Part shown: one piece after another, positions 6,893 to 49,324 of the stretch
How the letters are laid out: the number at the start of each line of letters is the position of its first letter
How positions within the stretch are numbered: the first letter of the stretch is position 1
Origin: an uncultured Alphaproteobacteria bacterium
Lineage (GTDB): Bacteria > Pseudomonadota > Alphaproteobacteria > Rs-D84
DNA length: 64,000 bases
Assembly: GCA_947175875.1 (NCBI GenBank)
Contig: CAMWON010000002.1
Location: 80,357 to 144,356, forward strand
Direction of reading: 5' to 3'
Notes under the pieces: generated by a model
What the model saw: only the letters and a program-made list of their open reading frames with translations
What the model was told of the DNA's origin: nothing
The model's database searches: none
Translations under genes and position numbers: made by a program

Positions 6893-6964
6893 AAATCAAC
6901 TATTTCCTTTACATATGTAGCTTTTTTTTCTATTCTGAGCCTATAAAAGACAAGGAGAATTCAA

Positions 6965-7273: not shown

Positions 7274-7300
7274 TGGGTTGTTGCACAAAGGGATAAGGTT

Positions 7301-11983: not shown

Positions 11984-12025
11984 TGCGGCGATTTATTCTT
12001 AAATTGCACGCTTTTTTGTGATACA

Positions 12026-14284
12026 ATGCGTCTTATGGATACTCAATCAAAATTTTTGCCGGACAGTGTTGCCGGCGCACTTAAAAGTCTGGTGTTTCGC
12101 GGTGCGGGCGCGGTGCTGATGGTTGTCGGTATTTGGTTAACGGCGGCGCTGATTTTTCATGATCCGTATCTGGATGGATTTGCCGCGGCCGGAACACTGG
12201 GGCGCCAGGGGATTATGGGCAATATTGTCGGGGCGGTGCGTTATTTAATCGGCTTTGTGCCGGCGATGTTTGTTTTTTTATGCATGGCGCGGCGCGGGCT
12301 GGTCATGCTGGCGGGATGGCGTGACGACAATGCGCCCGAATATAATTTTATGCGCGGATTTATTGCGGTGGCCGCCGGTGCCGCCGGTTTCGGCATGATT
12401 ATGCCGGGGGCGACGTTCGGGGGCTTGGCCGGTGCGGTGGCCGCGGCGGATATGACGGCGCTGGTTGGCGGATTTGCCGCGTTGGTCGGAATGGCACTGG
12501 TCGGCGTGTTTTTTGTTTTGGGCGGCGTGGTATTGCATGTGAAATGGGCGCATGTTCGCGCGTTGCTTTCGTTTGTGTGGCGTGCGGTACGCTGGGTTCT
12601 GTCGGTGTTCCATTTGACGCGTCCGGTTGTCGCGGTGGCATCGGATGATGTGGCACCGGATGAGGAGGCGGAGCCGGAAGAGGATGAAGAAGAGGCGGCC
12701 GCGCCCGCCGCGGCGGCGGCACGCCGACCGCGCACCCGGGCGATAAAGCGTCGTGCGGTGGCGCCGCGCGATGCCGCGGGGCCGGCGGAATATGAATTGC
12801 CGCCGCCGGAATTATTAGAGGCGTCAAATTTCAGCAAGACCGGTGTGACCGCGGAATTAAAGCGCGTGGCGGTGTCGCTGGAGGATCATTTTGAAGAATT
12901 CGGCGTATATGGCAAGGTTGTCGGTATCAAGCCCGGGCCGATTGTGACGCTGTTTGAATTTGAACCGGACACCGGCGTGCGTATCGCAAAGATTACGGAA
13001 ACCGTAAAGGACATGACGCGCGCGATGGCGACGGAAAGCATGCGTATTGCGCATATTCCGGGCACGCCATATCTGGGCGTGGAAATGGTGAATTTAAACC
13101 GCCAGACGGTGCGTTATCGCGAGATTATCGCGGATTCCGCGTTTGTTGAATCCAAGTACAAGATTCCGTTGGCGCTGGGTGTGAATATCGGCGGCAAGCC
13201 CATGTATTACGACTTGGCGAAAATGCCGCACATGCTGGTTGCGGGGCGTACGGGTTCCGGTAAGTCCGTGTTTATTCAGTCTTTGATTACGTCCATTGTT
13301 TATCACTTTACGCCCGACAAGTGCAAGTTGATGATTATTGACCCAAAGGGTGTTGACTTTGGATTCTGGGACGATGTTCCGCATCTGATTACGCCGATTG
13401 TAAAGCTGGACCCCGGGGCGGCCGTGAATGCATTGAAATGGGCCGTCCGCGAGATGGAAGAGCGTTATAAACAGATGCAGGTTCTGGATGCGCGCAATGT
13501 CGAAAGCTATAACGAAATGGCGGCGAAAAAGCGCGCGTCGGGCGAAAAGATGACGCGCCAGGTCGCCGTCGGAACCGACGAGGAGACGGGCGAGCTGCTG
13601 TTCGAGACCCAGGAAATAGATTTGTCCGATTTGCCGTACATTGTCATTATCATAGACGAGGTTGCGGATTTGATGAGTCTGGCGCGCAAAGAGGTGGAGG
13701 CGTGCGTGCAGCGTATCGCGCAAAAGGCGCGTGCGGCCGGAATACACTTAATCATGGCGACCCAGCGTCCGGACGCGACAACGATTACGGGCGTTATCAA
13801 GGCCAATTTCCCGACGCGTGTTTCGTTCCAGGCGCGCAGCAATATTGACTCGCGTACGACATTGGGCGAGGGCGGGGCCGAGAACCTGCTGGCGATGGGC
13901 GACATGCTGTTCAGCGAGGCGGGACGCGTTCCCGTCCGCATACACGGCGCGTATATATCCGACGCCGAATTGAATGCGGTTGGCGATTTCCTGCGCGCGC
14001 AGGGTGCGCCGGAATACGCGGCCGGTGTTACCGACGGCGACGACGTCGCGGATACGGCCGCCGCGCCGGCATCGACGCCCGCGGCACAGACAAAGGGTGA
14101 AAAGGACGCAGACCTGTACACACAGGCAAAGGAAATTGTTCTGCGTGATAAAAAGCCGACTATTTCGTATCTGCAACGACGCCTGCAAATCGGGTACAAC
14201 AAGGCGGCGACGTTTATAGAGCGCATGGAGGAAGAGGGTGTTGTCAGTGCGCCTGACGCCAACAACAAACGTCATATTTTATAG
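12026..14284 (+). CDS. ftsK: DNA translocase FtsK
   Basis: N-terminal 4-TM domain, Glu/Ala/Pro-rich linker, RecA-like motor with Walker A (VAGRTGSGKSV) and C-terminal winged-helix gamma domain (ISYLQRRLQIGYNKAATFIERMEEEGVV). Confidence 0.9.
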   Translation: MRLMDTQSKFLPDSVAGALKSLVFRGAGAVLMVVGIWLTAALIFHDPYLDGFAAAGTLGRQGIMGNIVGAVRYLIGFVPAMFVFLCMARRGLVMLAGWRDDNAPEYNFMRGFIAVAAGAAGFGMIMPGATFGGLAGAVAAADMTALVGGFAALVGMALVGVFFVLGGVVLHVKWAHVRALLSFVWRAVRWVLSVFHLTRPVVAVASDDVAPDEEAEPEEDEEEAAAPAAAAARRPRTRAIKRRAVAPRDAAGPAEYELPPPELLEASNFSKTGVTAELKRVAVSLEDHFEEFGVYGKVVGIKPGPIVTLFEFEPDTGVRIAKITETVKDMTRAMATESMRIAHIPGTPYLGVEMVNLNRQTVRYREIIADSAFVESKYKIPLALGVNIGGKPMYYDLAKMPHMLVAGRTGSGKSVFIQSLITSIVYHFTPDKCKLMIIDPKGVDFGFWDDVPHLITPIVKLDPGAAVNALKWAVREMEERYKQMQVLDARNVESYNEMAAKKRASGEKMTRQVAVGTDEETGELLFETQEIDLSDLPYIVIIIDEVADLMSLARKEVEACVQRIAQKARAAGIHLIMATQRPDATTITGVIKANFPTRVSFQARSNIDSRTTLGEGGAENLLAMGDMLFSEAGRVPVRIHGAYISDAELNAVGDFLRAQGAPEYAAGVTDGDDVADTAAAPASTPAAQTKGEKDADLYTQAKEIVLRDKKPTISYLQRRLQIGYNKAATFIERMEEEGVVSAPDANNKRHIL

Positions 14285-14400: not shown

Positions 14401-14424
14401 GGCGCGCAATGCGCCCGTTTTTAT
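14401..14424 (+). terminator. Rho-independent terminator downstream of ftsK
   Basis: Hairpin ggcgc-gcaat-gcgcc followed by cgtttttata. Confidence 0.6.
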
Positions 14425-14425
14425 A

Positions 14426-14573
14426 TTCGGACGAAAAACAAACTCCTGAACCGCGGGTCAGGAGGGTTGCGAATATATTGAATAAGCACACAATTCTATG
14501 GATTGTTCTGAACCTCCTGACCACTCAAATTTTGGGTGGTTTTTCATTTCGAAAAACAACAGGAGAAGAACGA
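14426..14573 (+). promoter_or_regulatory. Structured 5' leader of Cys-rich paralog 1 with alternative pairings and a terminator-like hairpin + U-run immediately upstream of the RBS
   Basis: Hairpin ctcctga-accgcgg-tcaggag (about 14444-14464). A second cctcctga copy (about 14513-14520) can compete for the tcaggagg arm. Hairpin ccactc-aaattttg-ggtgg + ttttt (about 14521-14544) ends about 30 nt before the ATG. The same architecture sits upstream of paralogs 2 and 3. Confidence 0.4.
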
Positions 14574-15203
14574 ATGAAATTCAATATTTTAACATTTGGT
14601 TTTGCCATAATGTTGCTTGTGTCGTCGGCATATGCGGACGAGTTTATTCTGGGGCAGGATGATTATGGCGGAATGGACATCGCCATCGGGCAGCAATGCT
14701 CGTCAGGGGGCAAAATCCTTATAAAATGTGAATGTGCATCTCCAAATATAGGCGTAAGTGCCCTGTGTTCTACGAAGGAGTTTGTTCCGGATGGCGGGTG
14801 CAAGCTGGCGGGGGGCGAGCACATCAATGCCAATTATTATTGTGTTGATGCGGAATATGACACCGCGTGCATGTTATGTAAGTGCAATAATGGTCAAACG
14901 TCAACGGCGTGGGGCTCTGTCGGCAGTAATCGGGTGTCGCGTACAAAGTATACAACAACTGTAAGTGGATATCGCTGTAGTTCCGTGTCAAGTACCGAAT
15001 ACGGGTGTGCGGCGGGGTATTATCAATCCGGCGGCAGCGGTGCGACAATGACGTGCGCACGTTGTCCGTCGTCGGGTGGTGTTTATGGCACAAATAATAT
15101 CGGCACGACGGATATAACGACATGCTGCATTCCGGCAAATTCGTCAATGAAGGATTCGGGGGGCACATACACTTTTACGGGAGGGTGCTGTTATAAAAAA
15201 TAA
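14574..15203 (+). CDS. Secreted cysteine-rich protein, paralog 1 (conserved C-terminal Cys module, unknown family)
   Basis: RBS caggagaag; signal peptide MKFNILTFGFAIMLLVSSAYA; 20 Cys in the mature part. C-terminus GCAAGYYQSGGSGATMTCARCPSSGGVYGTNNIGTTDITTCCIPANSSMKDSGGTYTFTGGCCYKK is shared with the ORFs at 47833 and 48631. Confidence 0.6.
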   Translation: MKFNILTFGFAIMLLVSSAYADEFILGQDDYGGMDIAIGQQCSSGGKILIKCECASPNIGVSALCSTKEFVPDGGCKLAGGEHINANYYCVDAEYDTACMLCKCNNGQTSTAWGSVGSNRVSRTKYTTTVSGYRCSSVSSTEYGCAAGYYQSGGSGATMTCARCPSSGGVYGTNNIGTTDITTCCIPANSSMKDSGGTYTFTGGCCYKK

Positions 15204-15291: not shown

Positions 15292-16539
15292 ATGAAAAAG
15301 CAGATGTCTTTGTTTGTTTGGGCGGCGGCTGTTTTCGGCATGTCGCCTGTGTGGGCCGCAACCAACAGCGGCATGCGTGCGGCGTCCAGTGCGGATCTGT
15401 CGGGCGGCCCGGCCGTGCGTGCGCGTGAAAATGTAAATTATGAAAAGTATCAGACGCGCAGCACGACAACCACGTATCAGTCGCGTGACGCGGGTGATCT
15501 GTATTACACCCAGCCCGCCAGCCGCAGCGCCCTGTACAAACAGTATGACAGCAACACGCGCAGCGGCACAGCGGCGACGACAACAACACGCAACGTTCGC
15601 ACGACGCGCGCGGAAACGGTGCGCAGCACGCTGAAACGCAAATATTACCTGGCGCATCCGTTCTTTCAGCCGCTGAAGGGTAAGTTCGGTTCGGTTACGG
15701 ATTTGTCTTATAACATGAATTCGTATGACATGGCGCTGACCCCGGCCGAGGGGATGACGATTTCCGACACCAAGGCAAAGTGGGACATGAAGGGTTTCTC
15801 TATCAAAGAAGACTTCAGCTATGGTATTACGGACCGTTTGGCGGTGTTGATAATGGGGCAGTATGATTCATACAAGTACAAGTTCGACTGGTCCACGGCG
15901 CCCGACGACAAGATGGACGACGATGGTCTGAATTTGTATGGTGCCGGTGTTCAGTGGCGCTTTGTCGACAATGAAAAATGGATTGGAACCCTGTCCGGTT
16001 ATTATCAGCACCAGAAAGACATTTCCAACAATTACGTTTTGGATTTAAAGGGCGGATACAAGGTTGCGCGTTCCACAATATATGCGCTGGCGCGCGGATG
16101 GTATGTTGACTTTGACGGCAATTCTTATGGAAACGGCATCGAGGGTACGACGGCCGAAGGAAACAAGGCGGCGATATTCATCGCGTATGACACCGATGCC
16201 GACAATGCGTTCTATATGGAGGGGGGGCTCGGCGTGTTCAGTGTTCTGGACGAAGACTGGACCCTGAATCTGGAAGCGGTGTTTGGCGACTATGACTGGC
16301 ACAACCAGGCGTCGATTAAGGGCGCAATCGGCTGGCAGCCGAACGACTGGGTTGCGTTGAACCTGTATGCCAAGACGGCGTTTTACGACAGTGCTGACGA
16401 CAAAAGCCTGGGCTACTGGTCGTATGGCGCGACGGGGCCGGACGGGGAGTTTATTAACGGATGGGTAAAGCATGGTGATGCAAAGCTGTCCGATTACAAG
16501 GAAACGACGGTCGGTCTGCAGGCTATATTCCAGTTCTAA
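15292..16539 (+). CDS. Outer-membrane beta-barrel protein (unknown family)
   Basis: Extended -10 tggtataat at about 15253; RBS aaaggagaa; signal peptide MKKQMSLFVWAAAVFGMSPVWA. Alternating amphipathic strands, Thr/Arg-rich N-terminal region and C-terminal ...LQAIFQF (terminal aromatic, OMP signature). Confidence 0.6.
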   Translation: MKKQMSLFVWAAAVFGMSPVWAATNSGMRAASSADLSGGPAVRARENVNYEKYQTRSTTTTYQSRDAGDLYYTQPASRSALYKQYDSNTRSGTAATTTTRNVRTTRAETVRSTLKRKYYLAHPFFQPLKGKFGSVTDLSYNMNSYDMALTPAEGMTISDTKAKWDMKGFSIKEDFSYGITDRLAVLIMGQYDSYKYKFDWSTAPDDKMDDDGLNLYGAGVQWRFVDNEKWIGTLSGYYQHQKDISNNYVLDLKGGYKVARSTIYALARGWYVDFDGNSYGNGIEGTTAEGNKAAIFIAYDTDADNAFYMEGGLGVFSVLDEDWTLNLEAVFGDYDWHNQASIKGAIGWQPNDWVALNLYAKTAFYDSADDKSLGYWSYGATGPDGEFINGWVKHGDAKLSDYKETTVGLQAIFQF

Positions 16540-16612: not shown

Positions 16613-17326
16613 ATGTTGTTTAAAAAGATTATGGCGGTGGTTTGTGCGGCGATGCTGGTCGTGCCGGCGGCGCGTGCGGCGGATTATGACACGTCCGACC
16701 CGTTGTACATGAACGGCAGAAGTGAAATTCTGTCAACGTCAAACATTGCATATTACGACAGTGTTCTGCGCATTGGCCAGGCGCTGTCCTATGGTTTTAC
16801 AGAGCGCTTTAACGCCGGCATCAGTTTGCATTACCAGAATGATTTTGACGGTGACGAGGACGGTTTCTCCAGCTTTGACTTAGGCGGAAAATATCGTCTG
16901 ATGACCGCGGCTGACAATAATGCCAATATCATATCGGACGTGCTGTTCGGGTTTAAGTTCGGCGGCTCGTCCCATGTGCGCACGCCGTGGTTTGCGGATT
17001 CGACGTATTATGCGGGACTGCGCTTTGGACGCGAGTATGCGACAATGACGCTGGCCGGGACGGTAAAGTCCAGCTGGATTTTCGACGACGACCGCGGAAT
17101 GTCGTACATAGACTTTATCCCGGAGGTATATTTTCGTCTGCGCGGCGCATGGCGGCTGGGGCTTGGGGCGGATATTCGCAAATCCACCAATACGGATTTC
17201 GACCAGGAATGGCTGAATGCAAAGCTGGTGCGGCAGTACGGACGCACGCAATATATCGGTCATATTGATTACGAGTTTGAGGATAGTGAAGTGCAGGTGG
17301 GGGCAAAGCTGAACATATTGTTTTAA
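16613..17326 (+). CDS. Outer-membrane beta-barrel protein (unknown family)
   Basis: RBS caaggagag; signal peptide MLFKKIMAVVCAAMLVVPAARA; beta-strand periodicity; C-terminal ...GAKLNILF. Confidence 0.55.
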   Translation: MLFKKIMAVVCAAMLVVPAARAADYDTSDPLYMNGRSEILSTSNIAYYDSVLRIGQALSYGFTERFNAGISLHYQNDFDGDEDGFSSFDLGGKYRLMTAADNNANIISDVLFGFKFGGSSHVRTPWFADSTYYAGLRFGREYATMTLAGTVKSSWIFDDDRGMSYIDFIPEVYFRLRGAWRLGLGADIRKSTNTDFDQEWLNAKLVRQYGRTQYIGHIDYEFEDSEVQVGAKLNILF

Positions 17327-17372
17327 TCTTGCGTGGTGCGCCGTATTTTAATCTTTTTTGGCGCGCCCGCTT

Positions 17373-17381
17373 GTGGTATAA
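17373..17381 (+). promoter_or_regulatory. Extended -10 promoter element TGGTATAAT; leaderless or very short-leader transcript for the large Cys-rich protein
   Basis: tggtataat ends 14 nt before the ATG at 17395, and no RBS is visible. The same TGGTATAAT element precedes the OMP at 15292 and the Ros/MucR gene (about 33589). Confidence 0.4.
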
Positions 17382-17394
17382 TCAATATATAATA

Positions 17395-19719
17395 ATGAAG
17401 AAAATCGTTACGTGGATTTTTGCTTTTGCTTTTACGGCGCCGGCCGCCATGGCCGATACGCCCGTTATTTCACGTGCCATTCCGTCATCGGCTGCATCCG
17501 TTGATAACAGTGCGACGCGCGATAATTCAACCGTGTCGTCCGCGCGTACGACCGTGCGTCGCGATACGGCTCAAAAATCAAGCGCCGGCACAACAGCCGC
17601 GTCATCCGAGAAAGGGGCGACGGCCGTCCGCGCAACTCGCACCACGGACACGGCCACGCGCGCCGTGACACCGTCGCGCGGTGCGGCGGCGCGCATCGCC
17701 GCGGGCGACACGGCGACATCGGCACGTGACAATTTGAATGCTGCGGTGAACACGGTCGGGCGCAATGCGCGCGTGACGGCGGCATCCGTCAACAGCGACC
17801 CGGCGGTGCGCCGTGCGGGGGTGACGCTGCGACCCAGCACGGCCGAGGTTGGGGGCCGCGCAAAAATCGCCGGGACAAATATTCAGACAGGCTCTAACAT
17901 CGGGGAATCTGTGCGCGCGCTGCAATCACGTGCGGCGTCGTCCACAACAACCACGACCCAGAGAGAGACAATAGCTGAGGCCAAAGAACGCCTGGAGCAG
18001 ACGGCCGATTTGAACAAATCATGCCAGGAGCAGTACAACGACTGTATGGACCAGTTCTGTGCGGTTATCGATTCCAATCAGAAACGTTGCAGCTGCAGTG
18101 CAAACTTATCCAGATACACCAAGGTTGAGACGGCGGTCAAAGACGCCAATACCCAGCTGAACGAGGTGGCGCAGCGTATCCGATATGTCGGATTGTCGGC
18201 GGACGAGATTCGGGCAATTATGTCCGCGACCGAGGCGGAAGAGGCCCTGTCCGGTGCACGCGACACGACCGAGACGCGCAACATGCTGGCCGATATAGAA
18301 GATTTGATAAAGAATCCGTCGTCGTCGACGTCGGTGGCCGGCAACGACAGTTTTTCGACGCTGGATTTGAATCTTGATTTTTCCGACACGTCCAATTTAT
18401 TTAGTCTGGACTTCTTAAACAACAATTCCAGCAGCATGTCAAACCTGCGCGGGACGGATTTGTATAACGCGGCGAAAAAGCGCTGCAATTCCATACTTAG
18501 CCAGTGTAAAGACGCCGGTGCCACGCAACAGCAGCTGACGGCGAATTACGATTTGGCGATTGACAAGGACTGTATCGCGTACGAGCAGGGGTTAACAAAA
18601 ATGAACGAGACTTTGGTCTCGAACGTGCGCAGTGCGAATCTGATGCTGCAAAAGGCGCGTCTGGCCGTGCTGCAGAATAAAAACCAGTATGATGCAAAGG
18701 GGTGCATTTCGGCACTGGACACATGCATGACGGATGAAATGGTTTGCGGTGAAAATTATGAAAAATGTCTGGACCCGACCAAAAGATACATCGATGAAAA
18801 CGGCAAGGTTGTAATCGGCCAGGATATTACGTTTATCCGCGACTTTATGAAGTCATATGACAATTCTGCAATAAATACTGAATTTTTGAGAAATGCGGCG
18901 GCGTCTAGCAAGGTGGTCGGCATCGAGGCATGCAAGAAGAATATAAGCGGAGAGTCAGGTGAGAACAGTGCGGCCAACGGCGACGGGTGGTGCGCGGTTA
19001 AATATCTGCTGCAAAAGATTGGAACCGGCGTCCGCTCGACAGAGGGGTTGTGTCGGCCCGTTCTGGACAAGTGCCAGCGTTATACGTACGACAGCAACAA
19101 CAATTATCAGCCGTACAACGACATCGTCTTAAATTACATCCAGCGCGCGATGGTAAACATAAAGTCCGGCCAGGAAAAGACAATTGCGGATTATGCGTCG
19201 AACTGTATGGTTGATGTCGCGACATGCTATAACCAGCAGGTGAGCCAGGTGAATGCATGGACGTCGTCGGCCAGTGTCGGCAGCATTCGCAACGTTATGC
19301 GCGGTGCATGCCGGAACGTCGTGCTGACGTGCGGATATGCGATATTTGATGATTGCTCTACCGCATGTGAATATTTTCAGGACGAAAATCGTAAGAACCA
19401 GTGTTTGGCGAACTGTCCGAAAACATCAGGTGGCGAGGGTGATATTATAGATGCGGTTTCCGAAATGTTCTATAACAGCATGCTGTGTCCGGATAATTCG
19501 ACATACAATAAAACGTCTAAATCAGCAGCAACCGAAGATAACAAGAAACGATATGTCAATGATTTGTGCACATGCAATACGGGCTATGAACCGTGGAGCA
19601 GTCAGTGCGTTTTAATATGTCCCGATAACTCTGACCGTAATTCGTATGGTTCGTGTGTGTGCGATGAAGGCTATACCATGAAAAACGGTGTCTGCATACA
19701 AAATGCCAAAAGCGAATAG
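17395..19719 (+). CDS. Large secreted cysteine-rich protein (775 aa from the Met at 17395), unknown function
   Basis: Signal peptide MKKIVTWIFAFAFTAPAAMA. About 180 aa of Ala/Thr/Arg/Ser-rich low-complexity region, then a predicted helical segment, then over 40 Cys including the EGF-like C-terminus CTCNTGYEPWSSQCVLICPDNSDRNSYGSCVCDEGYTMKNGVCIQN. No recognisable enzymatic motif. Confidence 0.65.
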   Translation: MKKIVTWIFAFAFTAPAAMADTPVISRAIPSSAASVDNSATRDNSTVSSARTTVRRDTAQKSSAGTTAASSEKGATAVRATRTTDTATRAVTPSRGAAARIAAGDTATSARDNLNAAVNTVGRNARVTAASVNSDPAVRRAGVTLRPSTAEVGGRAKIAGTNIQTGSNIGESVRALQSRAASSTTTTTQRETIAEAKERLEQTADLNKSCQEQYNDCMDQFCAVIDSNQKRCSCSANLSRYTKVETAVKDANTQLNEVAQRIRYVGLSADEIRAIMSATEAEEALSGARDTTETRNMLADIEDLIKNPSSSTSVAGNDSFSTLDLNLDFSDTSNLFSLDFLNNNSSSMSNLRGTDLYNAAKKRCNSILSQCKDAGATQQQLTANYDLAIDKDCIAYEQGLTKMNETLVSNVRSANLMLQKARLAVLQNKNQYDAKGCISALDTCMTDEMVCGENYEKCLDPTKRYIDENGKVVIGQDITFIRDFMKSYDNSAINTEFLRNAAASSKVVGIEACKKNISGESGENSAANGDGWCAVKYLLQKIGTGVRSTEGLCRPVLDKCQRYTYDSNNNYQPYNDIVLNYIQRAMVNIKSGQEKTIADYASNCMVDVATCYNQQVSQVNAWTSSASVGSIRNVMRGACRNVVLTCGYAIFDDCSTACEYFQDENRKNQCLANCPKTSGGEGDIIDAVSEMFYNSMLCPDNSTYNKTSKSAATEDNKKRYVNDLCTCNTGYEPWSSQCVLICPDNSDRNSYGSCVCDEGYTMKNGVCIQNAKSE

Positions 19720-19729: not shown

Positions 19730-19757
19730 AAAAAACGACCGAACGGTCGTTTTTTTA
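19730..19757. terminator. Bidirectional rho-independent terminator between the large Cys-rich gene and convergent dnaQ
   Basis: aaaaaacgaccg-aa-cggtcgttttttt: a perfect hairpin flanked by an A-run and a T-run. Confidence 0.6.
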
Positions 19758-20432
19758 TGCGGTGATTTTTGCAATAAATTCGTTGTGCGCGGCCAGCTCG
19801 TCCGGGTGGGCGGGGAATGAGCGGCGCGGAAAATCGCCGCCGATTTTCGGGTGCTTTAAAAACGCCGCATGCTGGTCCGCAATGATTTCGGATATGTCGG
19901 GGACGGGCGCCGTATTTTCCAATTCCAGATAAACCTTTGCCAGAATCTCAGAGTCGATTAACGCGCCGTGTGCATCGGCACGCGCCGTCAGCGATATGCC
20001 GTACCATTTTGCCAGCGCGTCCAATGTAAACAGTTTTGGACCAAAAACGCGGTTGCGCGCCAGAACCAGCGAGTCTATCTGGCGGCTGCGCGGAATCTGG
20101 GGCAGGCCGAGTTTGCCAAGCTCGTGATTTACAAACGGAAAGTCAAAGTCGATGCCGTTGTGCGCGACAATCGGCGCGTCGCCGATAAATTCCAGAAAGC
20201 GGGGCGCGACCTCTATCATTTTTGGCTTATCTTCCAGGAACGCGTTTGAAATCTTGTGGACCATGTATGTTTCCGGGGGAATAATCTTGCCTTCTGGATT
20301 TATGTATTCGTGAAATGTTTTGTCCGTAATTTGCCCGTCAATGATTTCAACCGCGCCGATTTCAATGCAGCGGTCGCCGCGCATGTATTCAAAACCGGTT
20401 GTTTCAATGTCAAAGCAAATAACGCGTTTCAT
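19755..20432 (-). CDS. dnaQ: DNA polymerase III epsilon subunit (3'-5' proofreading exonuclease, DEDDh)
   Basis: Exo I VICFDIETTG; Exo II VAHNGIDFDFPFV; Exo III HGALIDSEILAKVY. Confidence 0.85.
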   Translation of the reverse strand: MKRVICFDIETTGFEYMRGDRCIEIGAVEIIDGQITDKTFHEYINPEGKIIPPETYMVHKISNAFLEDKPKMIEVAPRFLEFIGDAPIVAHNGIDFDFPFVNHELGKLGLPQIPRSRQIDSLVLARNRVFGPKLFTLDALAKWYGISLTARADAHGALIDSEILAKVYLELENTAPVPDISEIIADQHAAFLKHPKIGGDFPRRSFPAHPDELAAHNEFIAKITA

Positions 20433-20490: not shown

Positions 20491-22560
20491 ATGCTAGAAA
20501 ATCTTAACGAGGCCCAGCGCGCCGCGGTGGAAACGACCGAAGGGCCGCTGTTGGTGCTGTCGGGGGCGGGAACGGGCAAGACGCGCGTGCTGACGACGCG
20601 CATCGCGCATATTTTGCAAAGCCGCCTGGCCATGCCGTGGCAGGTGCTGGCCCTGACGTTTACGAACAAGGCTGCGAACGAGATGAAGGCGCGCATCGCC
20701 GCGTTTGCCGCGGACGGTGCGTTTGATGCGCGCGATTTGTGGTGCGGAACGTTTCATTCTGTGGCGCTGCGGATTCTGCGCGCGAATGCGGACGCGGCGG
20801 GCCTGCGCCGTGATTTTATCGTATATGGCGACGACGACCAAAAGGCCGTGATAAAAAATATTTTAGCCGCCCTGGGAATGTCAACCAAGACCCCGGCCGA
20901 TTATGTGGAGCAGTTTTCGTCGGTCAAGGACAGGGGGCTGCGCGCGCTGGAATATTCCGACAAGGTGTATGCGGCGTATAACGCGGAACTGGCGCGGTTG
21001 AACGCGGTGGACTTTGGCGACATAATATTAAAAGTGTTGCAGTTGTTTGATACGCACCCCGAAATCCTCTTGCGGTATCAGAACCAATTCAAATACATCT
21101 TGGTGGACGAGTTTCAGGATACCAACCACGCCCAGATGGAATTTCTGGAAATGCTGACCCGCGGGGCGGAGCGGCCGAACATATGTTGCGTCGGCGATGA
21201 CGACCAGTCCATATATTCATGGCGCGGGGCGGAAATAAAGCACATTTTAAATTTCGACAAAACGTTTGACGCCGCGCGCGTAATCCGGTTGGAGATAAAT
21301 TATCGCAGCACGCCGAATATTTTGGGCGCGGCAAATTCGCTGATACGCCATAACCGCGGAAGACTTGGCAAGGATTTGCGCAGTGCGGATGAAAATACCG
21401 TCGGCGAGCCGGTGTATGTCTTAACCGTCCCCAGCGACTGGGACGAGGCGCGTGTCGTCGCCGACGCTGTCCTGCGCGATGCGGCGGATTTCGGCAAGTT
21501 TGCGGTTTTGATTCGTGCGGGCTCGCTGTCGCGTTTGTTCGAGGAAGAGTTTGCGCGCCGCGGCATTCCGTATCGTTTGATTGGCGCGACCAAGTTTTAC
21601 GACCGTGCGGAAATCAGGGACGCGATTGCGTACATACGCTTGATGGCGTATCCGTTTGACGATATTTCATTTTTGCGCGTAATCGGTCGTCCGCGCCGCG
21701 GTTTTGGCGCGGCGGCGATTGAAAAACTGCGCGGGGCCGGGCCGGATTTGATGTCGGGGCTGATGAATGCGAAACTGTCGGCAAAGCAGAGGGCGGCCGC
21801 CGATGAATTTTTGTCCGCGTTTGATTTCGACTGGTCCGCGATGGCGCCGATGGACGCGGCCAAGACACTTTTGGAGCGCGCGGGCTATTTCAAAATGTGG
21901 CGCGAATCCAAAGACGCCGATGCGTCGGACCGTCTTGCAAATTTGCAGGAATTGATAACCAACGTTATTTCCAAATACGACACAATCGCCGAATTTTTAG
22001 AGCAGGCCGCCCTGATGATGACGGACGACGATGCGGACGCGGCGGATGCCGGTGGCGCGGTATCCATAATGACGATACACGCGGCCAAGGGGTTGGAATT
22101 TGACACCGTGTTTTTGCCGGCCTGGGAGGAGGGGATTTTTCCCAACGAAAAGACCGTGGACGAGGGGGCGCTGGAGGAAGAGCGCAGACTGGCCTATGTG
22201 GCGATAACGCGTGCGCGCGTGCGTGCGGTTATCTTGAACGCAATGTCGCGTCGGTTGTTTGGGGAGCAAAAGTATAATTCGCCCAGTCGCTTTATCACAG
22301 AGATGGACGGCCGGTATCTGGATTTTCAGGGCGGCTCGCCCCGCGGTGCGTATGCGCCGCCGCGCGGTATTGCGACATCTTATACACCGGCGCCGCGTGC
22401 GGCGCGCGCGACGCCGAAAAATTCCGTGGGACGATTGGTGTCGCATGCCGATATGGGGCGGGGCGTTGTTATCGAAGACGGTGGCGAGATATTGACCGTC
22501 GCGTTCAAAAGCCGCGGAATAAAAAAGGTCGCGCGCGGCTATCTGACATTTGAGTCTTAA
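20491..22560 (+). CDS. uvrD: UvrD/Rep-family ATP-dependent DNA helicase
   Basis: MLENLNEAQRAAV...GPLLVLSGAGTGKTRVLTTRIAHIL (Walker A/motif I); DEFQDTN (motif II); QNYRST-like NYRSTPNIL; VSIMTIHAAKGLEFDTVFL (motif V/VI). The 20320 ORF start would overlap the dnaQ start, so the ATG at 20491 is preferred. A tattataat -10 lies in the divergent promoter region. Confidence 0.8.
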   Translation: MLENLNEAQRAAVETTEGPLLVLSGAGTGKTRVLTTRIAHILQSRLAMPWQVLALTFTNKAANEMKARIAAFAADGAFDARDLWCGTFHSVALRILRANADAAGLRRDFIVYGDDDQKAVIKNILAALGMSTKTPADYVEQFSSVKDRGLRALEYSDKVYAAYNAELARLNAVDFGDIILKVLQLFDTHPEILLRYQNQFKYILVDEFQDTNHAQMEFLEMLTRGAERPNICCVGDDDQSIYSWRGAEIKHILNFDKTFDAARVIRLEINYRSTPNILGAANSLIRHNRGRLGKDLRSADENTVGEPVYVLTVPSDWDEARVVADAVLRDAADFGKFAVLIRAGSLSRLFEEEFARRGIPYRLIGATKFYDRAEIRDAIAYIRLMAYPFDDISFLRVIGRPRRGFGAAAIEKLRGAGPDLMSGLMNAKLSAKQRAAADEFLSAFDFDWSAMAPMDAAKTLLERAGYFKMWRESKDADASDRLANLQELITNVISKYDTIAEFLEQAALMMTDDDADAADAGGAVSIMTIHAAKGLEFDTVFLPAWEEGIFPNEKTVDEGALEEERRLAYVAITRARVRAVILNAMSRRLFGEQKYNSPSRFITEMDGRYLDFQGGSPRGAYAPPRGIATSYTPAPRAARATPKNSVGRLVSHADMGRGVVIEDGGEILTVAFKSRGIKKVARGYLTFES

Positions 22561-23873
22561 GACGATTTCTTGCTGTCTTTGTAAATTTTCCAATATTTTT
22601 TCGCCTGGGCCTGCATGTTCTTGGCCAGTTTCGTGACGTCTTTGCCGAACTGCTGGCCCAGCGAGTCGTCAACACTGCCGCCCAAGTCTTTTGCCAGCTG
22701 CAGCGCCTTGTCGGCCAGGTATGCGACCAGACATCCGATAATCAGCGTTATCATAAATCCATCGTTGTCGATTGACGGGACGCTGGACGCCAGGTTCGCG
22801 TCCACCACGCCGGACAGTATCGCCGCGCACACCGCGACAACAATCGACAGTGATACGAAATAAATTGCGGCGTTTATGAATCTGTTTATCTGCGTGGTCA
22901 AACTTTCCGTTTTGAACAACCCAAGGAATCCGTTGAATATTGTTCCGGCGATTCCCTTGTACGACGTCTTGCCGACTGTTTCCGCAATCGCCGTGAACGG
23001 CAGCATGAATATTGTCAAAAACAGGTCTGCAATCACGCCCAGCGCCATCAACGCAAACTTCCATATGTTTATCAAAAATATTACAATAAATACGGCGCCG
23101 ATTAGGAATGTGAACATGCTGTGTCCGATGCCGGCCAGCATCCATTTCCACCCGGCGGCGACGGCGGTGTAAAAGAATCCGGACAGTCGCGTCGGCACGC
23201 ACATTATGTCGGCGGCGGCCCGGGCGTCGATTATCGCGTCCGCGGCCATGTGCGTCGCGGCATAGTCACGTATGGCGCCGCATGTGTCGGGCAGTGATGC
23301 GCCGGCGGTTGTTGTCACCGCGTTCAAAATCAAATCCGACATATAGGTGCCCACGGTTATTATCGGGCCCGCGACCAGCATAAAAGTTTGGGCCGCACCG
23401 TATTGAATGACGAACACCCATATTGCGATTGTAAAGCCTTTCTTTACGATTCCCTCAATCGATTTTTTTACCTCCACGGCGCCGATAATCATCTGATACG
23501 CCTCGAACCCCATCCAGAACAGGAACGCAACCGCGATGAATATCGTTGCGAAACGCACCAACGAACTGTCCAGAATGCGCCCGATAAGCGTCATTGCGTT
23601 CATGAATGCAAGGCCGATTTTAGCCTCGACCGGGACATAGTCCGCAACCAGCTGATTTTGAAATTCGGATTGGAAAAAATTTATATCCTCGGCCAATTCG
23701 CCGGTAAAGGCCTCTTTGTTATGGTCGGTCGCCCACACGCCATAGTCGCCGATGTCGCCGGTTGCGCCCGGCACGTTGCCGGCCGCCATTGCGCCGGGCA
23801 TAAGCAGCAAGGCTCCGACGGCGCATATCATTATTTTTGAAAATATTTTTTTCAGCCTCGTCATGTATGTCAT
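22557..23873 (-). CDS. Polytopic inner-membrane protein, VirB6/TrbL-like paralog A (putative)
   Basis: Start taken at MTYMTRLKK, where ATGA overlaps the stop of paralog B. Signal/TM1, a soluble segment of about 70 aa, 6-7 further TM helices and a Lys-rich hydrophilic tail. Same architecture as the four upstream paralogs. Confidence 0.5.
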   Translation of the reverse strand: MTYMTRLKKIFSKIMICAVGALLLMPGAMAAGNVPGATGDIGDYGVWATDHNKEAFTGELAEDINFFQSEFQNQLVADYVPVEAKIGLAFMNAMTLIGRILDSSLVRFATIFIAVAFLFWMGFEAYQMIIGAVEVKKSIEGIVKKGFTIAIWVFVIQYGAAQTFMLVAGPIITVGTYMSDLILNAVTTTAGASLPDTCGAIRDYAATHMAADAIIDARAAADIMCVPTRLSGFFYTAVAAGWKWMLAGIGHSMFTFLIGAVFIVIFLINIWKFALMALGVIADLFLTIFMLPFTAIAETVGKTSYKGIAGTIFNGFLGLFKTESLTTQINRFINAAIYFVSLSIVVAVCAAILSGVVDANLASSVPSIDNDGFMITLIIGCLVAYLADKALQLAKDLGGSVDDSLGQQFGKDVTKLAKNMQAQAKKYWKIYKDSKKSS

Positions 23874-25309
23874 GCCTTTTTGCCAAACGCCTTGGACATG
23901 GCGCCGAATATCTGGGTCGGGGCAGACCATATCTTTTTGCCCAAATCCTTGGTCCATGCGCCAAAGTCAAACTGTTCCTTGCCCGGCGCGGACAGTATCT
24001 TGTCAACGCGCGGCGCCACGGCGTAATAGTACAGCAGGAACAGTCCAATCATTAACATCAGGAAATCCCATCCGTTTGACATAAAGTCGAATGCGCCGGG
24101 ATAGTGTCGCTCAACCTCTGCGCGGCGGGCGGTGAAACAGTTCTTGAACGCGTCCGCGTCCATTTCGCCGTCCGAGAGGGCGACGCGTTCGCAATCTGAG
24201 AACACGCGCATTACGGACAATGTTTGCGCGTCCGGATTTTCCGGTGCGACCCCCATCATCGGCGGCAGTATCGCGCTGTACCCGTCGGCGGGGCCGGGGA
24301 AGAATTCGTCGGCCGCGTACGAGACGGTCGCGTAAATGATAAGAATTTTTAATGTTATTGCGATAATTTGTATGGCGGTTTTAACCAGCATGTTTATCGC
24401 GTTGCCGGTTATGCCCCCGGCCAGCTTCCATGTTTTTTCAAATGCCGCCGCCGCCAGCAGGAACGGCAGGAATATTATTAAAAATACCAATTTGAATACA
24501 ACCGACAAAATCTGAAAGAACAGGTCGAACCCGATAATCAAAAACATTATCACCAGCGCCAGTCCCGCCAGCCATGTGAACAGGCCGCCGCCCATGCCCA
24601 GCCATGCGTAATTCATCAATGCAAATCCGCCCGCGGCGCCCGCCAGCATCACGCTGTTCAAATTTCCGATAACGCACATGAACGGCGCCATTACCGGGTT
24701 TAATATATCCGCCGAATCCGCCGCCGCGGTTTCCAGCGCGCGGCATTGCGAGCCCTGGGTTGTGCCGGTCGCCGCCATTGACAGTTCGGCGCCCACAAAC
24801 ATTACGGGCGTGATTGTTATGTTGGCGACTGTTTTTAACGCGGTTGTCCCGCCCATGCCCAGTGCGCCGATAAACACGCCGACGAACATTATGCGCGCGC
24901 CCTGGCGCCATACTTTGTCGAACCATGCCTGAAATTCTAGTTTCTTTTCAGACGTGTCCAAAGTGGACGTTTTCTGGGCGGCGGCATAGATATGCCGTAT
25001 CGCCTCTATAAACAGGAACAGCCCGAACCCCAGTGCCAGCAGTATCCACAGCGTTTCCACTATGGCGTTCCAGAACATTTCCGTTGCGCGGCTGATTACC
25101 GCAAACAGCTCCGTTATATACCCGCACATAAAGCAGCCCGATGCGCCGGCGATGTCGTCGGATGCACCGATTGCCGACATGAAATTATCCATGCTGGTGT
25201 ATGTTAAAGCCGCGCCGCCAATCGACGACGACAGGTACCAAATTCCGATACCCAGCGCAATGGCACCCATGATTAAGCGAATGGCAATCATTATTAATTT
25301 CGCCTTCAT
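23870..25309 (-). CDS. Polytopic inner-membrane protein, VirB6/TrbL-like paralog B (putative)
   Basis: 479 aa. The N-terminal CFMCGYITELFAVIS motif is shared with paralogs C and E (CWGCPVFDRLFQVIS, CWSCDMFGAVMATMS). Multiple TM helices and a Lys-rich tail. Start ATGA-overlaps the stop of paralog C. Confidence 0.5.
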   Translation of the reverse strand: MKAKLIMIAIRLIMGAIALGIGIWYLSSSIGGAALTYTSMDNFMSAIGASDDIAGASGCFMCGYITELFAVISRATEMFWNAIVETLWILLALGFGLFLFIEAIRHIYAAAQKTSTLDTSEKKLEFQAWFDKVWRQGARIMFVGVFIGALGMGGTTALKTVANITITPVMFVGAELSMAATGTTQGSQCRALETAAADSADILNPVMAPFMCVIGNLNSVMLAGAAGGFALMNYAWLGMGGGLFTWLAGLALVIMFLIIGFDLFFQILSVVFKLVFLIIFLPFLLAAAAFEKTWKLAGGITGNAINMLVKTAIQIIAITLKILIIYATVSYAADEFFPGPADGYSAILPPMMGVAPENPDAQTLSVMRVFSDCERVALSDGEMDADAFKNCFTARRAEVERHYPGAFDFMSNGWDFLMLMIGLFLLYYYAVAPRVDKILSAPGKEQFDFGAWTKDLGKKIWSAPTQIFGAMSKAFGKKA

Positions 25310-26505
25310 TTTCCACCCGCCTTGTCATCTTTTTTACCGCCGTTTATAATCGTCGCCCCGATTTTTTTCATGGTTTGGGCCGCCGCCGTGGTCAGTTTCA
25401 TCGCGTCGTCGGCCAGCTGTTCGCCCAGTTTGTTATCCGCCGATACGTTGAACGCGCCAAGCACCATGTTCGTGACCTGGGGAATCTGGGAATAGATATA
25501 ATTTAGTACATATACCAGCACAATCGCACTGCCCAGGGTTATCTGTGCCAGATTGTCCTGGTCAAGGTCGGCTTCAAACACGCTGCCGTTTGTAATCAGC
25601 GCCATCAAATCCGCCGTGGATGCACCGGGTGCGGAAAAGAATTTTGCGATTATCACCATTATCACCGTATATGTCAGTACCGCCGCCGCCAGACCAATTA
25701 TGGCGTTTATGACTTTTTTGAACTGGTCCGTTCCGACATTTTTGCCCAGGTTTGCCATCCATTGCGGCGCGTCGGCCCCTTTGAACGAGACCAGTGTTAA
25801 CGACAACGGAAAGAAAAATGCAAAGAAAGTCATTGCGATAATCACGTCCGCAAAGTAAAAGCAGAACCGTACGAACAGCTTGAAAAATCCATAGAACAGG
25901 TACAGTCCCACAAAGAACATTATTATATGTTTTATCAATGCGCCGATGCCCAGTAATGCATCCCAAGAAAATGCGTTATTCATTACAACGATGCCCAGTT
26001 TCATATAGGCCTGGAACTGGGTTATCGTGGTTTTCATAATCAGAATTATCGTATCGCGCAGGGCGGGGCGATAGAATCCGTCGTCGGACATCTGCATCGG
26101 CTGATAGGTCACTTTTTCATTAATCGTTTCCGTGTCCATGCGCAGCATGCTTTGCGTGTATATGGCCGTTATCTGGGCGACGGGCTCGAACGTTATCGTT
26201 GTTACAAAACGCGGCAGCCACACGCCCAGCGACAAAAACGCAAACGCCACCAAAGAGTTTATGAATACCGGCCGTATGGATTTTGCATAGAACGGGTCGC
26301 CGTCCGCACCGCCCTTGATGTTTTTCCAGACCGCGGACACCACAAAAAATGCGAACAGTACGCAGAACAGTATCATGCAGAACACGACGAACTTGTCATA
26401 TACCGCGGCGGCGGCCATTGATATCACCTGAAACAGACGGTCAAACACCGGGCAGCCCCAACACTGCACCGCGCCGTCTATGATAGGGTTCATTAGCTCG
26501 TTCAT
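25306..26505 (-). CDS. Polytopic inner-membrane protein, VirB6/TrbL-like paralog C (putative)
   Basis: Start at MNELMNPIIDGAVQCWGC, where ATGA overlaps the stop of paralog D. N-terminal amphipathic segment then a TM bundle, as in VirB6 (F..F..L...I then TM1). Gly/Lys-rich C-tail. Confidence 0.5.
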   Translation of the reverse strand: MNELMNPIIDGAVQCWGCPVFDRLFQVISMAAAAVYDKFVVFCMILFCVLFAFFVVSAVWKNIKGGADGDPFYAKSIRPVFINSLVAFAFLSLGVWLPRFVTTITFEPVAQITAIYTQSMLRMDTETINEKVTYQPMQMSDDGFYRPALRDTIILIMKTTITQFQAYMKLGIVVMNNAFSWDALLGIGALIKHIIMFFVGLYLFYGFFKLFVRFCFYFADVIIAMTFFAFFFPLSLTLVSFKGADAPQWMANLGKNVGTDQFKKVINAIIGLAAAVLTYTVIMVIIAKFFSAPGASTADLMALITNGSVFEADLDQDNLAQITLGSAIVLVYVLNYIYSQIPQVTNMVLGAFNVSADNKLGEQLADDAMKLTTAAAQTMKKIGATIINGGKKDDKAGGK

Positions 26506-27794
26506 TTCTTTTTCTTTATCCAGCCTGCGGCCCGACCGATTGACTTGCCCCAGTTTTTGGCGCCGCTCCATGTCTTTTTCGCGTCGCCTGTCACCTGGGT
26601 GTAGAGCTTGTCGCTGGCCGGGGAATACATTTTTAAGCGCTCGCGCGTTAGGTCAAATATGCGCAGCATTAAATAAAACGTCATTATCGCGGACAGCCAC
26701 AGTATCGAATGCTCGCCAAATCCCATGGCGTGGTTTGCCACCTGGGGGACGTTGGATGCGGCACTGCCGCCGGCGGCGACAACGAACACGGAACTGTTCC
26801 AGTTGAACAGGGCGCGCACAATCGCGACGTTTATCGTTAAAATAAACGCGCATGCAATCATTGTTATCACCAGGGACTGCAGCGCCTTGGTAATTCCGGA
26901 AAATGCCGGCCATATGTCGAACCATTTGTCCGGGTTCTTGGGCTTTACGACCCATGTCAAGACCTGGAACGGGTACAGAATCAGCGCCATTCCAAATTCA
27001 AATATCGCCTGAATAATCAGCAGCGCCATAAACAGATTACACCCGACAAACGCCGTCACAATCAATATGCCCGAGACCAGATTCATAAAGTCTTCGCCGC
27101 CGTGCGGTATTAGTGTTATCAGTCCGCGCAGCCCCCGGTGTATAAAATCAAATCCGCGCTTTATCATCTGGTTGTTCGTGTGGCTGATGTCGGCGATTGG
27201 CTGGGTTAAAAATTCACAGCTGCGCTCCGATATCCATTCCTTTTCCAGAATGTCCGGCGGGCATTCGACCGGCGCGGCGGCCGATGCCGCGATGCCGCCC
27301 GTGTTTATTCCGTCGGTGATTGCGCGCGTATAGATTGCACCGAATTCCAGAAACGGATTGACCAGCCATTCCGTCACATATACCGGTTTTATCTGCAATA
27401 AAACCACCGCCGCGATTATTGCGCGCAGGCCGGGCTTTAACATGTTCTGGGCGATGGTCATGCTGTCCGCCTTGCCGGATGCCATTTCGCCGCCGCCGGA
27501 AAATCCAAAGAACGCGACCCATTTTGCGGGGAAATACATTTTCACCAGATACAGGCCCATCGATATCCCCAGAAAGCCCCATATTAAAATGTATATGATG
27601 CCGTCGCCGTTTCCGACAAAGAATTCATATCCGCCCGTTGCGACCGCCATGAACGCGTCCAGCACCATCGGCACGAACGGCGCCAAATTAAAGCTGTCGA
27701 CGATGCCCCAGTCGGCATGCGCCGCGCACGGCGCCATAAGTGCGGCAAAAAACAGCGCGGCCGACAAAATTTTTTTTATTCTGGTCATATACAT
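26502..27794 (-). CDS. Polytopic inner-membrane protein, VirB6/TrbL-like paralog D (putative)
   Basis: 430 aa; signal peptide MYMTRIKKILSAALFFAALMAPCAAHA; periplasmic segment, TM bundle and KKKK tail. First gene of the four-gene minus-strand run. Confidence 0.5.
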   Translation of the reverse strand: MYMTRIKKILSAALFFAALMAPCAAHADWGIVDSFNLAPFVPMVLDAFMAVATGGYEFFVGNGDGIIYILIWGFLGISMGLYLVKMYFPAKWVAFFGFSGGGEMASGKADSMTIAQNMLKPGLRAIIAAVVLLQIKPVYVTEWLVNPFLEFGAIYTRAITDGINTGGIAASAAAPVECPPDILEKEWISERSCEFLTQPIADISHTNNQMIKRGFDFIHRGLRGLITLIPHGGEDFMNLVSGILIVTAFVGCNLFMALLIIQAIFEFGMALILYPFQVLTWVVKPKNPDKWFDIWPAFSGITKALQSLVITMIACAFILTINVAIVRALFNWNSSVFVVAAGGSAASNVPQVANHAMGFGEHSILWLSAIMTFYLMLRIFDLTRERLKMYSPASDKLYTQVTGDAKKTWSGAKNWGKSIGRAAGWIKKKK

Positions 27795-27817
27795 ATATAT
27801 TTATTGTTTTCAATTAT

Positions 27818-27841
27818 ATCACATTTGAGGGAAAATGTGAT
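27818..27841. promoter_or_regulatory. Perfect palindrome ATCACATTT-n6-AAATGTGAT in the 60-bp divergent intergenic region between paralogs D and E; candidate operator
   Basis: 9-bp arms with a 6-bp spacer, centred in an AT-rich divergent promoter region (27795-27854). Confidence 0.45.
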
Positions 27842-27854
27842 ATACTTAAAAGCG

Positions 27855-29150: not shown

Positions 29151-29218
29151 AAAATCAAGTGCTTTATTTAACGTGGGGGCCTTTTTTGCATCTTCCGAAT
29201 CTGATATAATTCATAGCA

Positions 29219-29728
29219 ATGAAGAAGTTTCCGATTCTTTACTGGCCCCGCGGTACCAAGAACGATAACGAGTATCGTCTGGCGCGCAAGGTGATAAGCA
29301 ACGCGACCGGCGTCATGCCGACACTGGCGGGTGGTGAAATGGATTTGGCGTCCATATTTGCCGAAAACCCGGAGGCGAGTGTCTATTACCCCGTTTTCTG
29401 TGAAAGCACGGGCTGGTGGGGCGAACTGCTGGGGGGGACGGCCGTTGTCACGGACAAGGTTATTATTTCCCCGGAATGCCAGTTGATGGTAATTGAATCC
29501 GCGCACCACAGCCGTGCGCGCGGCACGACCCAGCTGCTGGCGGCGGAAATATATCCGGCCAGCGGCTTTTTCAAGAAGATGAATTCGGGGATTGCGACGG
29601 TTTCCGACATGCTGGCGACCGATACGGGTACGATACTGGCACTGTTTTCGGGCAAAAGCCCCGCGCCGTTTATAAATATTTTGGAATCAACCGGTAATTC
29701 ATATCTGGGCTGTATCGGGCGGTACTAA
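29219..29728 (+). CDS. Hypothetical protein (169 aa), no recognisable motif
   Basis: ORF with its own -10-like gatataatt upstream and a compact codon-usage-consistent frame. No signal peptide or TM. Confidence 0.45.
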   Translation: MKKFPILYWPRGTKNDNEYRLARKVISNATGVMPTLAGGEMDLASIFAENPEASVYYPVFCESTGWWGELLGGTAVVTDKVIISPECQLMVIESAHHSRARGTTQLLAAEIYPASGFFKKMNSGIATVSDMLATDTGTILALFSGKSPAPFINILESTGNSYLGCIGRY

Positions 29729-35890: not shown

Positions 35891-35909
35891 CGGCGGGGGA
35901 TATGCAGAA

Positions 35910-39913: not shown

Positions 39914-39923
39914 TTGTCTTTGA

Positions 39924-46317: not shown

Positions 46318-46421
46318 TCGGAAAAGATTCTGGGCGCCCGGAACCGCGTTGTATTCAGATATTCTTTGTTATGGGAATATTTTTATGATATAATAAGCGT
46401 AACTGTATGGGGGAAGTATTC

Positions 46422-49299: not shown

Positions 49300-49324
49300 T
49301 TCTGATCCCCCGTTTTCCTTGGTT

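Follow-up and report, generated by a model that had tools for sequence, protein, structure and literature searches.

The 64-kb stretch of DNA analyzed here (64,000 nucleotides of contig CAMWON010000002.1, from an uncultured alphaproteobacterium of the order Rs-D84), which we refer to as the window, carries on its plus strand an open reading frame (ORF) that begins with the ATG at 17395, ends at 19719 with its stop codon, and encodes an exported-looking, cysteine-rich protein of 774 amino acids (aa), the target of this study. Mechanical ORF calling placed the start upstream, at TTG 17329, and this candidate start was rejected because the homologs in the alignment all begin at the MKK of a signal peptide, which fixes the start at ATG 17395. 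The initial annotation of this stretch had reported an encoded protein of 775 residues; the ORF is indeed intact, but that length counts the stop codon.

The protein is a three-part mosaic, consisting of a basic tail with an invariant motif in it, a helical body of acidic character, and fast-evolving loops together with a C-terminal tail. Its parts are listed below, all on the plus strand, with structure predicted by AlphaFold2 (AF2), model confidence given as the predicted local distance difference test (pLDDT), and selection given as the ratio of nonsynonymous to synonymous divergence (dN/dS).

17395 to 17454, plus strand, residues 1-20: Sec-type signal peptide MKKIVTWIFAFAFTAPAAMA (by inspection; the n/h/c layout is kept in homologs)
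17455 to 17724, plus strand, residues 21-110: variable basic tail (alignment, composition; AF2 pLDDT below 50)
17725 to 17949, plus strand, residues 111-185: almost invariant basic motif (alignment with many invariant columns; dN/dS 0-0.04)
17950 to 18834, plus strand: cysteine knot and long helices (alignment, two subfamilies; dN/dS 0.01-0.05; AF2 helices of 26-52 residues)
18835 to 18999, plus strand, residues 481-535: hypervariable insert within the body (indels; contains C513 and C533)
19000 to 19344, plus strand, residues 536-650: conserved helical C-domain (Cys pairs 553/560, 604/611 and 639/646; dN/dS 0.02-0.09)
19345 to 19716, plus strand, residues 651-774: variable Cys-rich tail (variable module number; dN/dS 0.27-0.62, indels)

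The N-terminus, MKKIVTWIFAFAFTAPAAMA followed by D, shows the n-, h- and c-regions of a Sec substrate (MKK, then IVTWIFAFAFTAP, then AAMA before the D) with an A-x-A box, and cleavage is predicted after A-M-A by inspection. Since this layout is shared by the homologs, export of the target is predicted, in agreement with its earlier description as secreted. The signal peptide has no lipobox, since the A-M-A at its end is followed by D, and no cysteine occurs before residue 210. An acidic residue, D or E, occupies position +1 or +2 of the predicted mature N-terminus in 25 of the 30 aligned members.

The first part of the mature protein, residues 21-110, is rich in A, T, S and R, contains neither aromatic residues nor cysteine, and carries many indels, and a short ISRAIP motif is conserved near its N-terminus. 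The isoelectric point (pI) of the basic tail is 11.6-11.9 (11.6 for residues 21-110), and aromatic residues are absent from the whole of residues 21-185. The initial annotation described this whole region as A/T/R/S low-complexity sequence, which describes the composition of residues 23-185 correctly, but residues 111-185 form the near-invariant motif (..NTVGRNARV..DPAVRRAG..LRPSTAEVGGRA..QTGSN..), which is 100% identical in the closest species, that of locus L002, although the synonymous divergence (dS) over these residues is 0.24. The motif is modeled with low AF2 confidence, which would be compatible with its folding on a partner.

The acidic helical body extends from residue 186 to residue 650, and the pI of residues 186-774 is 4.8. 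It opens with the hallmark of the family, the knot C210-x6-C217-x4-C222-x9-C232-x-C234, after which the helices carry invariant cysteines at 364, 371, 393, 437, 444, 451 and 458, with a linker rich in S, N, D and L at residues 301-360. The insert at residues 481-535 has amino-acid identities of 0.85, 0.75 and 0.49 in comparison to 0.96, 0.93 and 0.86 for its flanks, and the C-domain that follows is modeled at pLDDT of about 75-90. The C-terminal tail consists of a variable linker (residues 651-700) and two small CxCxxGY..C modules, predicted as beta-hairpins at pLDDT of about 90; this end varies among relatives, in which it is truncated, repeated or extended, and the longest of these proteins reach about 2300 aa and contain Cys-rich arrays. 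One long relative, P0127, and only this one, carries Listeria-Bacteroides repeats (E 8e-21). The target is hydrophilic (Grand Average of Hydropathy, GRAVY, of -0.5) and has no transmembrane (TM)-like segment past the signal peptide. Two AF2 models were obtained, with mean pLDDT of 54.7 for model 1 and 66.6 for model 2, the latter built with 67 sequences from both subfamilies and placing residues from about 430 to 774 at pLDDT 75-94; in both, long helices (26-52 residues) precede short beta-hairpins at the C-terminus.

The initial annotation had an EGF-like end to the protein, and the C-terminal string it quoted is present, but the resemblance stays under the Pfam threshold. Taking as EGF domains those that score at or above the gathering threshold and show the six-cysteine EGF pattern, the best Pfam EGF model for the target, EGF_Tme5, scored 15.9 bits (E 0.013) where the cut-off is 22, and an EGF model was matched at E <= 0.01 by one of 30 members. 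The CxCxxGY..C pattern, predicted as small disulfide-rich beta-hairpins, is like that of EGF-like or laminin-type Cys-rich modules, whereas the sub-threshold score and the varying module number are not, and the modules are EGF-like in pattern only.

We also counted the cysteines, for which a number over 40, concentrated in dense C-terminal clusters, had been reported. The results showed 32, starting at residue 210 and spread throughout the helical body. Among these, 18 are invariant or nearly so, namely the five of the knot, the seven of the following helices, and 553, 560, 604, 611, 639 and 646 in the C-domain, and these 18 are shared by two subfamilies with only about 36-40% identity. Seven CX6C pairs are among them, with the two cysteines of each pair one heptad apart, a spacing which suggests that helices may be pinned to each other by disulfides. 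Counting from the knot onwards to the C-terminus, 30/30 and 64/66 members (94/96) have an even number of cysteines, as expected if all cysteines were paired.

To describe how selection is distributed along the protein, dN/dS was estimated pairwise by the Nei-Gojobori method against the nearest species, L002, giving the following values.

Conserved parts: residues 111-185, 0.00; 186-300, 0.01; 301-360, 0.05; 361-480, 0.04; 536-650, 0.09
Variable parts: residues 23-110, 0.48; 481-535, 0.23; 651-700, 0.62; 701-774, 0.27

Against L002 and L003 together the core ranges from 0.00 to 0.09, and the raised values of 0.23-0.62 are accompanied by indels in residues 23-110, 481-535 and 651-774. At this short distance the target diverges fastest, with 89% identity to L002 in comparison to 95-99% for every neighbour, and across a genus-level spread its identity plateaus near 55-60%. 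The pattern is that of a conserved scaffold with what would be exposed, diversifying surfaces, and the pairwise values are no proof of positive selection.

Homologs of the target are numerous. A search of 5.8 billion proteins returned more than 1000, of which the best 120 have identities of at least 59% and query cover of 85-100% (at least 92% in all but one) and are all unnamed or called hypothetical, from metagenome-assembled genomes (MAGs) of Alphaproteobacteria. An exhaustive HMMER search of 1.84 billion cluster representatives gave 709 clusters (at 50% identity) with E <= 0.001 and 225 with E <= 1e-30, the longest relative among these matches having 2338 aa. In addition, a relative is encoded in 265 stretches of GTDB species genomes, of which 80 loci (L-numbered) were fetched for all locus comparisons; these come from gut MAGs labelled Alphaproteobacteria, 'Rickettsiales' or Candidatus Enterousia, and the named matches are all uncultured gut Alphaproteobacteria such as Ca. 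Enterousia (order Rs-D84). A second subfamily, of the P0158 type, is found in other alphaproteobacterial MAGs from the gut and shares 40% identity with the target across residues 193-614. A more distant paralog shares the Cys knot of the target, written CMESYYxCMDEICTARNxAQRRCAC. Some 30 of the 80 loci, all among L009-L081 and from Enterousia-type genomes, carry it on the strand of the target ortholog, about 3 kb upstream of the latter. In L001 it spans 6776-8839 and has 687 aa, with an N-terminal S/T/R-rich region before the knot, while L080 has three copies (4204, 6499 and 8529); this paralog was not found inside the 64-kb window. In the gut Alphaproteobacteria with reduced genomes (order Rs-D84, with Ca. 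Enterousia and its relatives), the target belongs to the lineage-specific core genes.

None of these proteins could be assigned to a described family. For the target, Pfam and NCBIfam gave only sub-threshold chance matches (five at E <= 1 in Pfam), and no Pfam match recurs across 30 members; nothing above threshold was found in PHROGs for the target or the family, and tblastn against phage genomes gave no match to the target, leaving no sign of phage origin. Sequence-profile searches of PDB with two alignments found no relative of the target, and fold comparison returned weak, non-significant resemblances (all E > 2) to AhlB, Tc toxins, colicin Ia and the trypanosome HpHb receptor. The statement of the initial annotation that no enzymatic motif is present holds in these searches, which also found no homology of the whole protein to a characterised family. 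As judged from these sequence comparisons, the target is the founding type of an undescribed family with no counterpart in Pfam, NCBIfam or PDB, and this family is probably also a new fold. What is new is the protein family, exported Cys-rich envelope or surface proteins being already known as a general kind.

Two database records of the family carry unexpected names. The distant member P0270 (MDR0741188.1) is called 'methyl-accepting chemotaxis protein [Rickettsiales bacterium]' by NCBI; its sequence contains the Cys knot of the family and, at the C-terminus, Cys-rich repeats, and Pfam shows no MCP domain in it, so that the name looks like an annotation error. Locus L010 (CAVGNU010000001.1) is titled 'Bacteroides fragilis', has the arrangement of target, dnaQ, uvrD and membrane proteins with 62-82% protein identity to the window, and is probably mis-binned or mislabelled.

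The nearest functional analogue that we can name is chlamydial OmcB, the 60-kDa cysteine-rich outer-membrane-complex protein. OmcB is Sec-exported, has no barrel, is beta-rich, has many cysteines thought to be disulfide-bonded, is conserved in a host-dependent bacterium with a reduced genome, and has both structural and adhesive roles, its basic N-terminal segment binding host glycosaminoglycans. The target resembles it in its Sec-type signal, absence of a beta-barrel, richness in cysteine, basic N-terminal segment and reduced-genome bacterium, but it is predicted helical and belongs to another taxon, and a cross-linked outer-membrane complex is known for OmcB only. No Pfam match of the target to the Chlam_OMP6 or DUF11 models was found, and nothing recurs across the 30 members. 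Fibrillar adhesins offer another comparison, as they too have a conserved proximal part, an elongated middle, and a distal end that varies in length or domain content among relatives; unlike theirs, the stalk of the target would be a Cys-stapled helical body in place of tandem Ig-like or other repeats, and the target has no known anchor (LPXTG, barrel or lipid), no repeat stalk and no adhesive Pfam domain. Cys pairs at fixed spacing within helices are also known from the twin-CX9C/CX3C mitochondrial proteins and the Sel1-like Hcp proteins of Helicobacter, from which the target differs in Cys spacing, size and context, and no Sel1 or CHCH Pfam match was seen in the target or the 30 members.

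From the conserved core, the invariant cysteines in even number, the helical model, the bipolar charge, the variable tip and the expansions in relatives, we infer a disulfide-stapled rod. Such a protein, mostly helical and Sec-exported, would most likely be a cell-surface stalk or adhesin, or a coat subunit, a tentative reading to which we assign a probability of about 0.45. After removal of the signal peptide, disulfides between the cysteines would hold the long helices together as a rigid rod; the motif at residues 111-185 and the basic tail would hold the protein on its own cell envelope, by binding either a conserved component of the envelope or a polyanion, for example peptidoglycan or lipopolysaccharide (LPS); and the insert and EGF-like C-terminal modules would form the exposed distal end, binding a ligand of a partner cell or host and diversifying between species. 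Listeria-Bacteroides repeats, as in P0127, are typical of surface proteins. The genomes of Enterousia and the order Rs-D84 are smaller than 1 Mb, biosynthetic pathways, respiration and flagella are missing, and partner dependence has been proposed for these bacteria (PMC12306168). The variable tip and loops, the C-terminal expansions of relatives and this partner-dependent lifestyle make the earlier suggestion of an adhesin or host-interaction factor a reasonable one.

Several points weigh against placing the protein on the cell surface. Neither a module for translocation across the outer membrane nor a known anchor was detected in the target (no beta-barrel, lipobox, T5SS, T1SS or T9SS signal), and a Sec substrate stays in the periplasm by default. 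With respect to type V secretion, Pfam and NCBIfam show no translocator barrel of an autotransporter or inverse autotransporter, and the AF2 models are helical with short C-terminal hairpins. The conservation of the core near 60% across genera is above what is usual for adhesins, and the quality of the AF2 models is only moderate at the mean pLDDT of 54.7 and 66.6. In addition, no Dsb-type oxidase was seen among the genes of the 64-kb window and the lineage is reported to be without respiratory chains, which makes the formation of disulfides a difficulty for every disulfide-based reading alike.

The default fate of a Sec substrate leads directly to the main alternative, that the protein stays between the membranes as a scaffold or tether, its basic tail bound or covalently linked to peptidoglycan and its disulfide-stapled rod serving as a spacer or brace for the envelope of a minimal-genome cell. 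This alternative, which we regard as rather doubtful and yet as one to be taken seriously, would account for a Sec substrate without recognisable outer-membrane export signal, for the very strong conservation of a core in a gene that is core-like in at least 265 species, and for the paralogs with the same N-terminal layout that some 30 of the 80 loci carry about 3 kb upstream, as would be expected for parts of one structure. The acidic residue at +1 or +2 in 25 of 30 members is a further lead, reminiscent of the Ala-Asp N-termini of outer-membrane proteins cross-linked to peptidoglycan in Brucella and Agrobacterium. Against this alternative, relaxed or diversifying evolution and indels are confined to specific loops and the tail, and the expansions of relatives beyond 1000 aa, with Cys-rich arrays and Listeria-Bacteroides repeats typical of exposed proteins, are hard to fit between two membranes. 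The same paralogs enter a bolder proposal, which we consider a long shot, that the target and its tandem paralogs are structural subunits of an undescribed Rs-D84 attachment structure docking onto partner cells or host surfaces, in which the stapled helical stalk would be tethered to the cell's own wall by the basic motif and would be displayed beyond the outer membrane through a pathway that is none of the known secretion types.

If the protein were instead released, as a toxin, an effector or a nutrient-scavenging binder acting in the gut lumen or on a partner cell, the signal peptide and a hydrophilic, acidic, disulfide-rich body suited to stability outside the cell would be in keeping with it, as would the weak and non-significant fold likeness to long-helix toxins and receptors. 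This is an unlikely outcome in our judgment: no hydrophobic helical hairpin is present, as the GRAVY value and the missing TM-like segments indicate, no secretion, immunity or partner gene is adjacent, the neighbours being housekeeping genes, and the invariant basic motif argues for a conserved partner of the producing cell itself. There is hardly any room left for the explanation that the ORF is an annotation artefact or a decaying gene in a shrinking genome, in favour of which there is only one small point, the earlier start of the mechanically called ORF at TTG 17329. More than 1000 full-length homologs, the 709 clusters, core dN/dS of 0.09 or less and the use of the ATG 17395 start in homologs refute it, and a pseudogene, which the initial annotation had named as what would overturn its proposal, is contradicted by intact orthologs at 80 of 80 loci and a core under strong purifying selection.

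To our knowledge, no member of Rs-D84 (Ca. Enterousia) has been cultured and no interaction factor of the group is known, while the group is widespread in the guts of humans, mice, birds and ruminants. The organism has only about 850-900 genes, and as all relatives examined have retained this exported protein of 774 residues, it is probably not dispensable. With its invariant, anchor-like motif and fast-evolving distal end, the target would be among the best concrete candidates for the molecule by which the lineage contacts its partner or host, and it could serve as a lineage marker or antigen for fluorescence in situ hybridization (FISH), immuno-labelling or enrichment.

The gene order upstream was reported correctly by the initial annotation, with a small Cys-rich protein, two outer-membrane-barrel-like proteins ending in F, and then the target. 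Its interpretation as a surface or secretome cluster did not survive comparison, and no functional unit was found. Only in the closest relatives (L002-L006 and L045) is the target ortholog immediately preceded by the outer-membrane genes and FtsK; in Enterousia, L21/L27 and the paralog are upstream of it, and genes of the second subfamily sit among unrelated housekeeping genes. An operon or functional cluster of the target with the two outer-membrane genes was thus rejected as a general arrangement, since synteny in close relatives only, together with the different location of the second subfamily, points to local juxtaposition. The order conserved in about 50 of the 80 loci is target, dnaQ, uvrD and then three polytopic membrane proteins downstream.

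The two upstream proteins (15292-16539 and 16613-17326) have signal peptides and a terminal F like outer-membrane barrels, with no Pfam match. The first, of 415 aa, has an S/T/R-rich N-terminal extension of its own of about 110 residues, and the second, of 237 aa, has a predicted mature N-terminus of Ala-Asp, which we take to be reminiscent of the peptidoglycan-linked outer-membrane proteins of Brucella and Agrobacterium. The small Cys-rich neighbour, which had been called a paralog of the target, has no significant similarity to it (BLASTP E > 0.09) and was rejected as such; its kin are two other genes of the window, and the three form the following set of small secreted Cys-rich paralogs, with 17-22 cysteines.

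14409 to 15203, plus strand: small Cys-rich protein upstream of the target
47833 to 48603, plus strand: small Cys-rich paralog
48631 to 49338, minus strand: small Cys-rich paralog

The G+C content at third codon positions (GC3) of these three genes is 0.44-0.47 in comparison to about 0.65, and their products share the C-terminal sequence CAAGYYxSGGSG..C..CP.SGG.YG..G.TDITTCCIPA. They have no Pfam match and belong to a narrow family of 21 proteins from close relatives only, which from its sequences looks like a fast-evolving, lineage-specific surface family.

The initial annotation also noted an extended -10 promoter box close to the start of the target, which is present, and the 3' end of the gene is marked by a terminator-like hairpin.

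17374 to 17382, plus strand: extended -10 promoter-like box TGGTATAAT (putative function)
19730 to 19756, both strands: bidirectional intrinsic terminator AAAAAACGACCGAACGGTCGTTTTTTT (hairpin minimal free energy, MFE, of -21.6 kcal/mol, z -3.15)
12019-12035, 27838-27855, 29202-29219, 35848-35868 and 39913-39957 (the last on both strands): TGnTAnnnT boxes before starts
46386-46407, 58615-58630 and 60589-60610: further TGnTAnnnT boxes before starts

The box TGGTATAAT ends 12 nt 5' of the ATG, and as the spacer caatatataata contains no G, no Shine-Dalgarno sequence precedes the start codon; upstream, no -35 box is recognisable (TTTTTT at 17354-17359). A leaderless or near-leaderless mRNA is plausible for the target. 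The sequence TGNTATAAT has 7 sites in the 64-kb window in comparison to 1.4 expected, and the looser pattern TGnTAnnnT is found 6-12 nt before the start codon, without a Shine-Dalgarno sequence, at no fewer than 10 long ORFs of the window, including FtsK and the ORFs starting at 27855, 29219, 35868, 39913 (minus strand), 39957, 46407, 58630 and 60610. Because the arrangement recurs at at least 10 other genes, it appears to be a habit of the genome and not a peculiarity of the target, and leaderless or near-leaderless mRNAs may be common in the Rs-D84 source genome. The terminator is common to the target and the convergent dnaQ-like gene (19755-20432, minus strand), and by these predicted signals the target is a standalone unit with its own promoter-like box and terminator.

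Further downstream, a run of five adjacent genes at 22557-29150 codes for polytopic membrane proteins, each 420-480 aa long and with 6-7 TM-like segments. Weak paralogy links them in pairs, none has a significant Pfam match, and three are syntenic with the target in about 50 of the 80 loci; the assignment of these membrane proteins to TrbL/VirB6 was considered and finds no support in Pfam. The rest of the window is that of an ordinary diderm chromosome, with LptF/G, SecDF, YajC, Lnt, LolA, TatC, PBP and SPOR, as well as LysM-M23, MucR and aminoacyl-tRNA synthetases. A 627-aa protein with a phage-lysozyme-like domain and TPR repeats is encoded at 34007-35890, adjoining a MucR/Ros-type regulator gene (33635-33994). 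Finally, a single ORF of 661 aa at 35868-37853 combines a YbeY endoribonuclease domain (residues 44-147) with the LNT_N and CN_hydrolase domains of apolipoprotein N-acyltransferase, which may reflect either gene fusion or a pair of genes called as one ORF.

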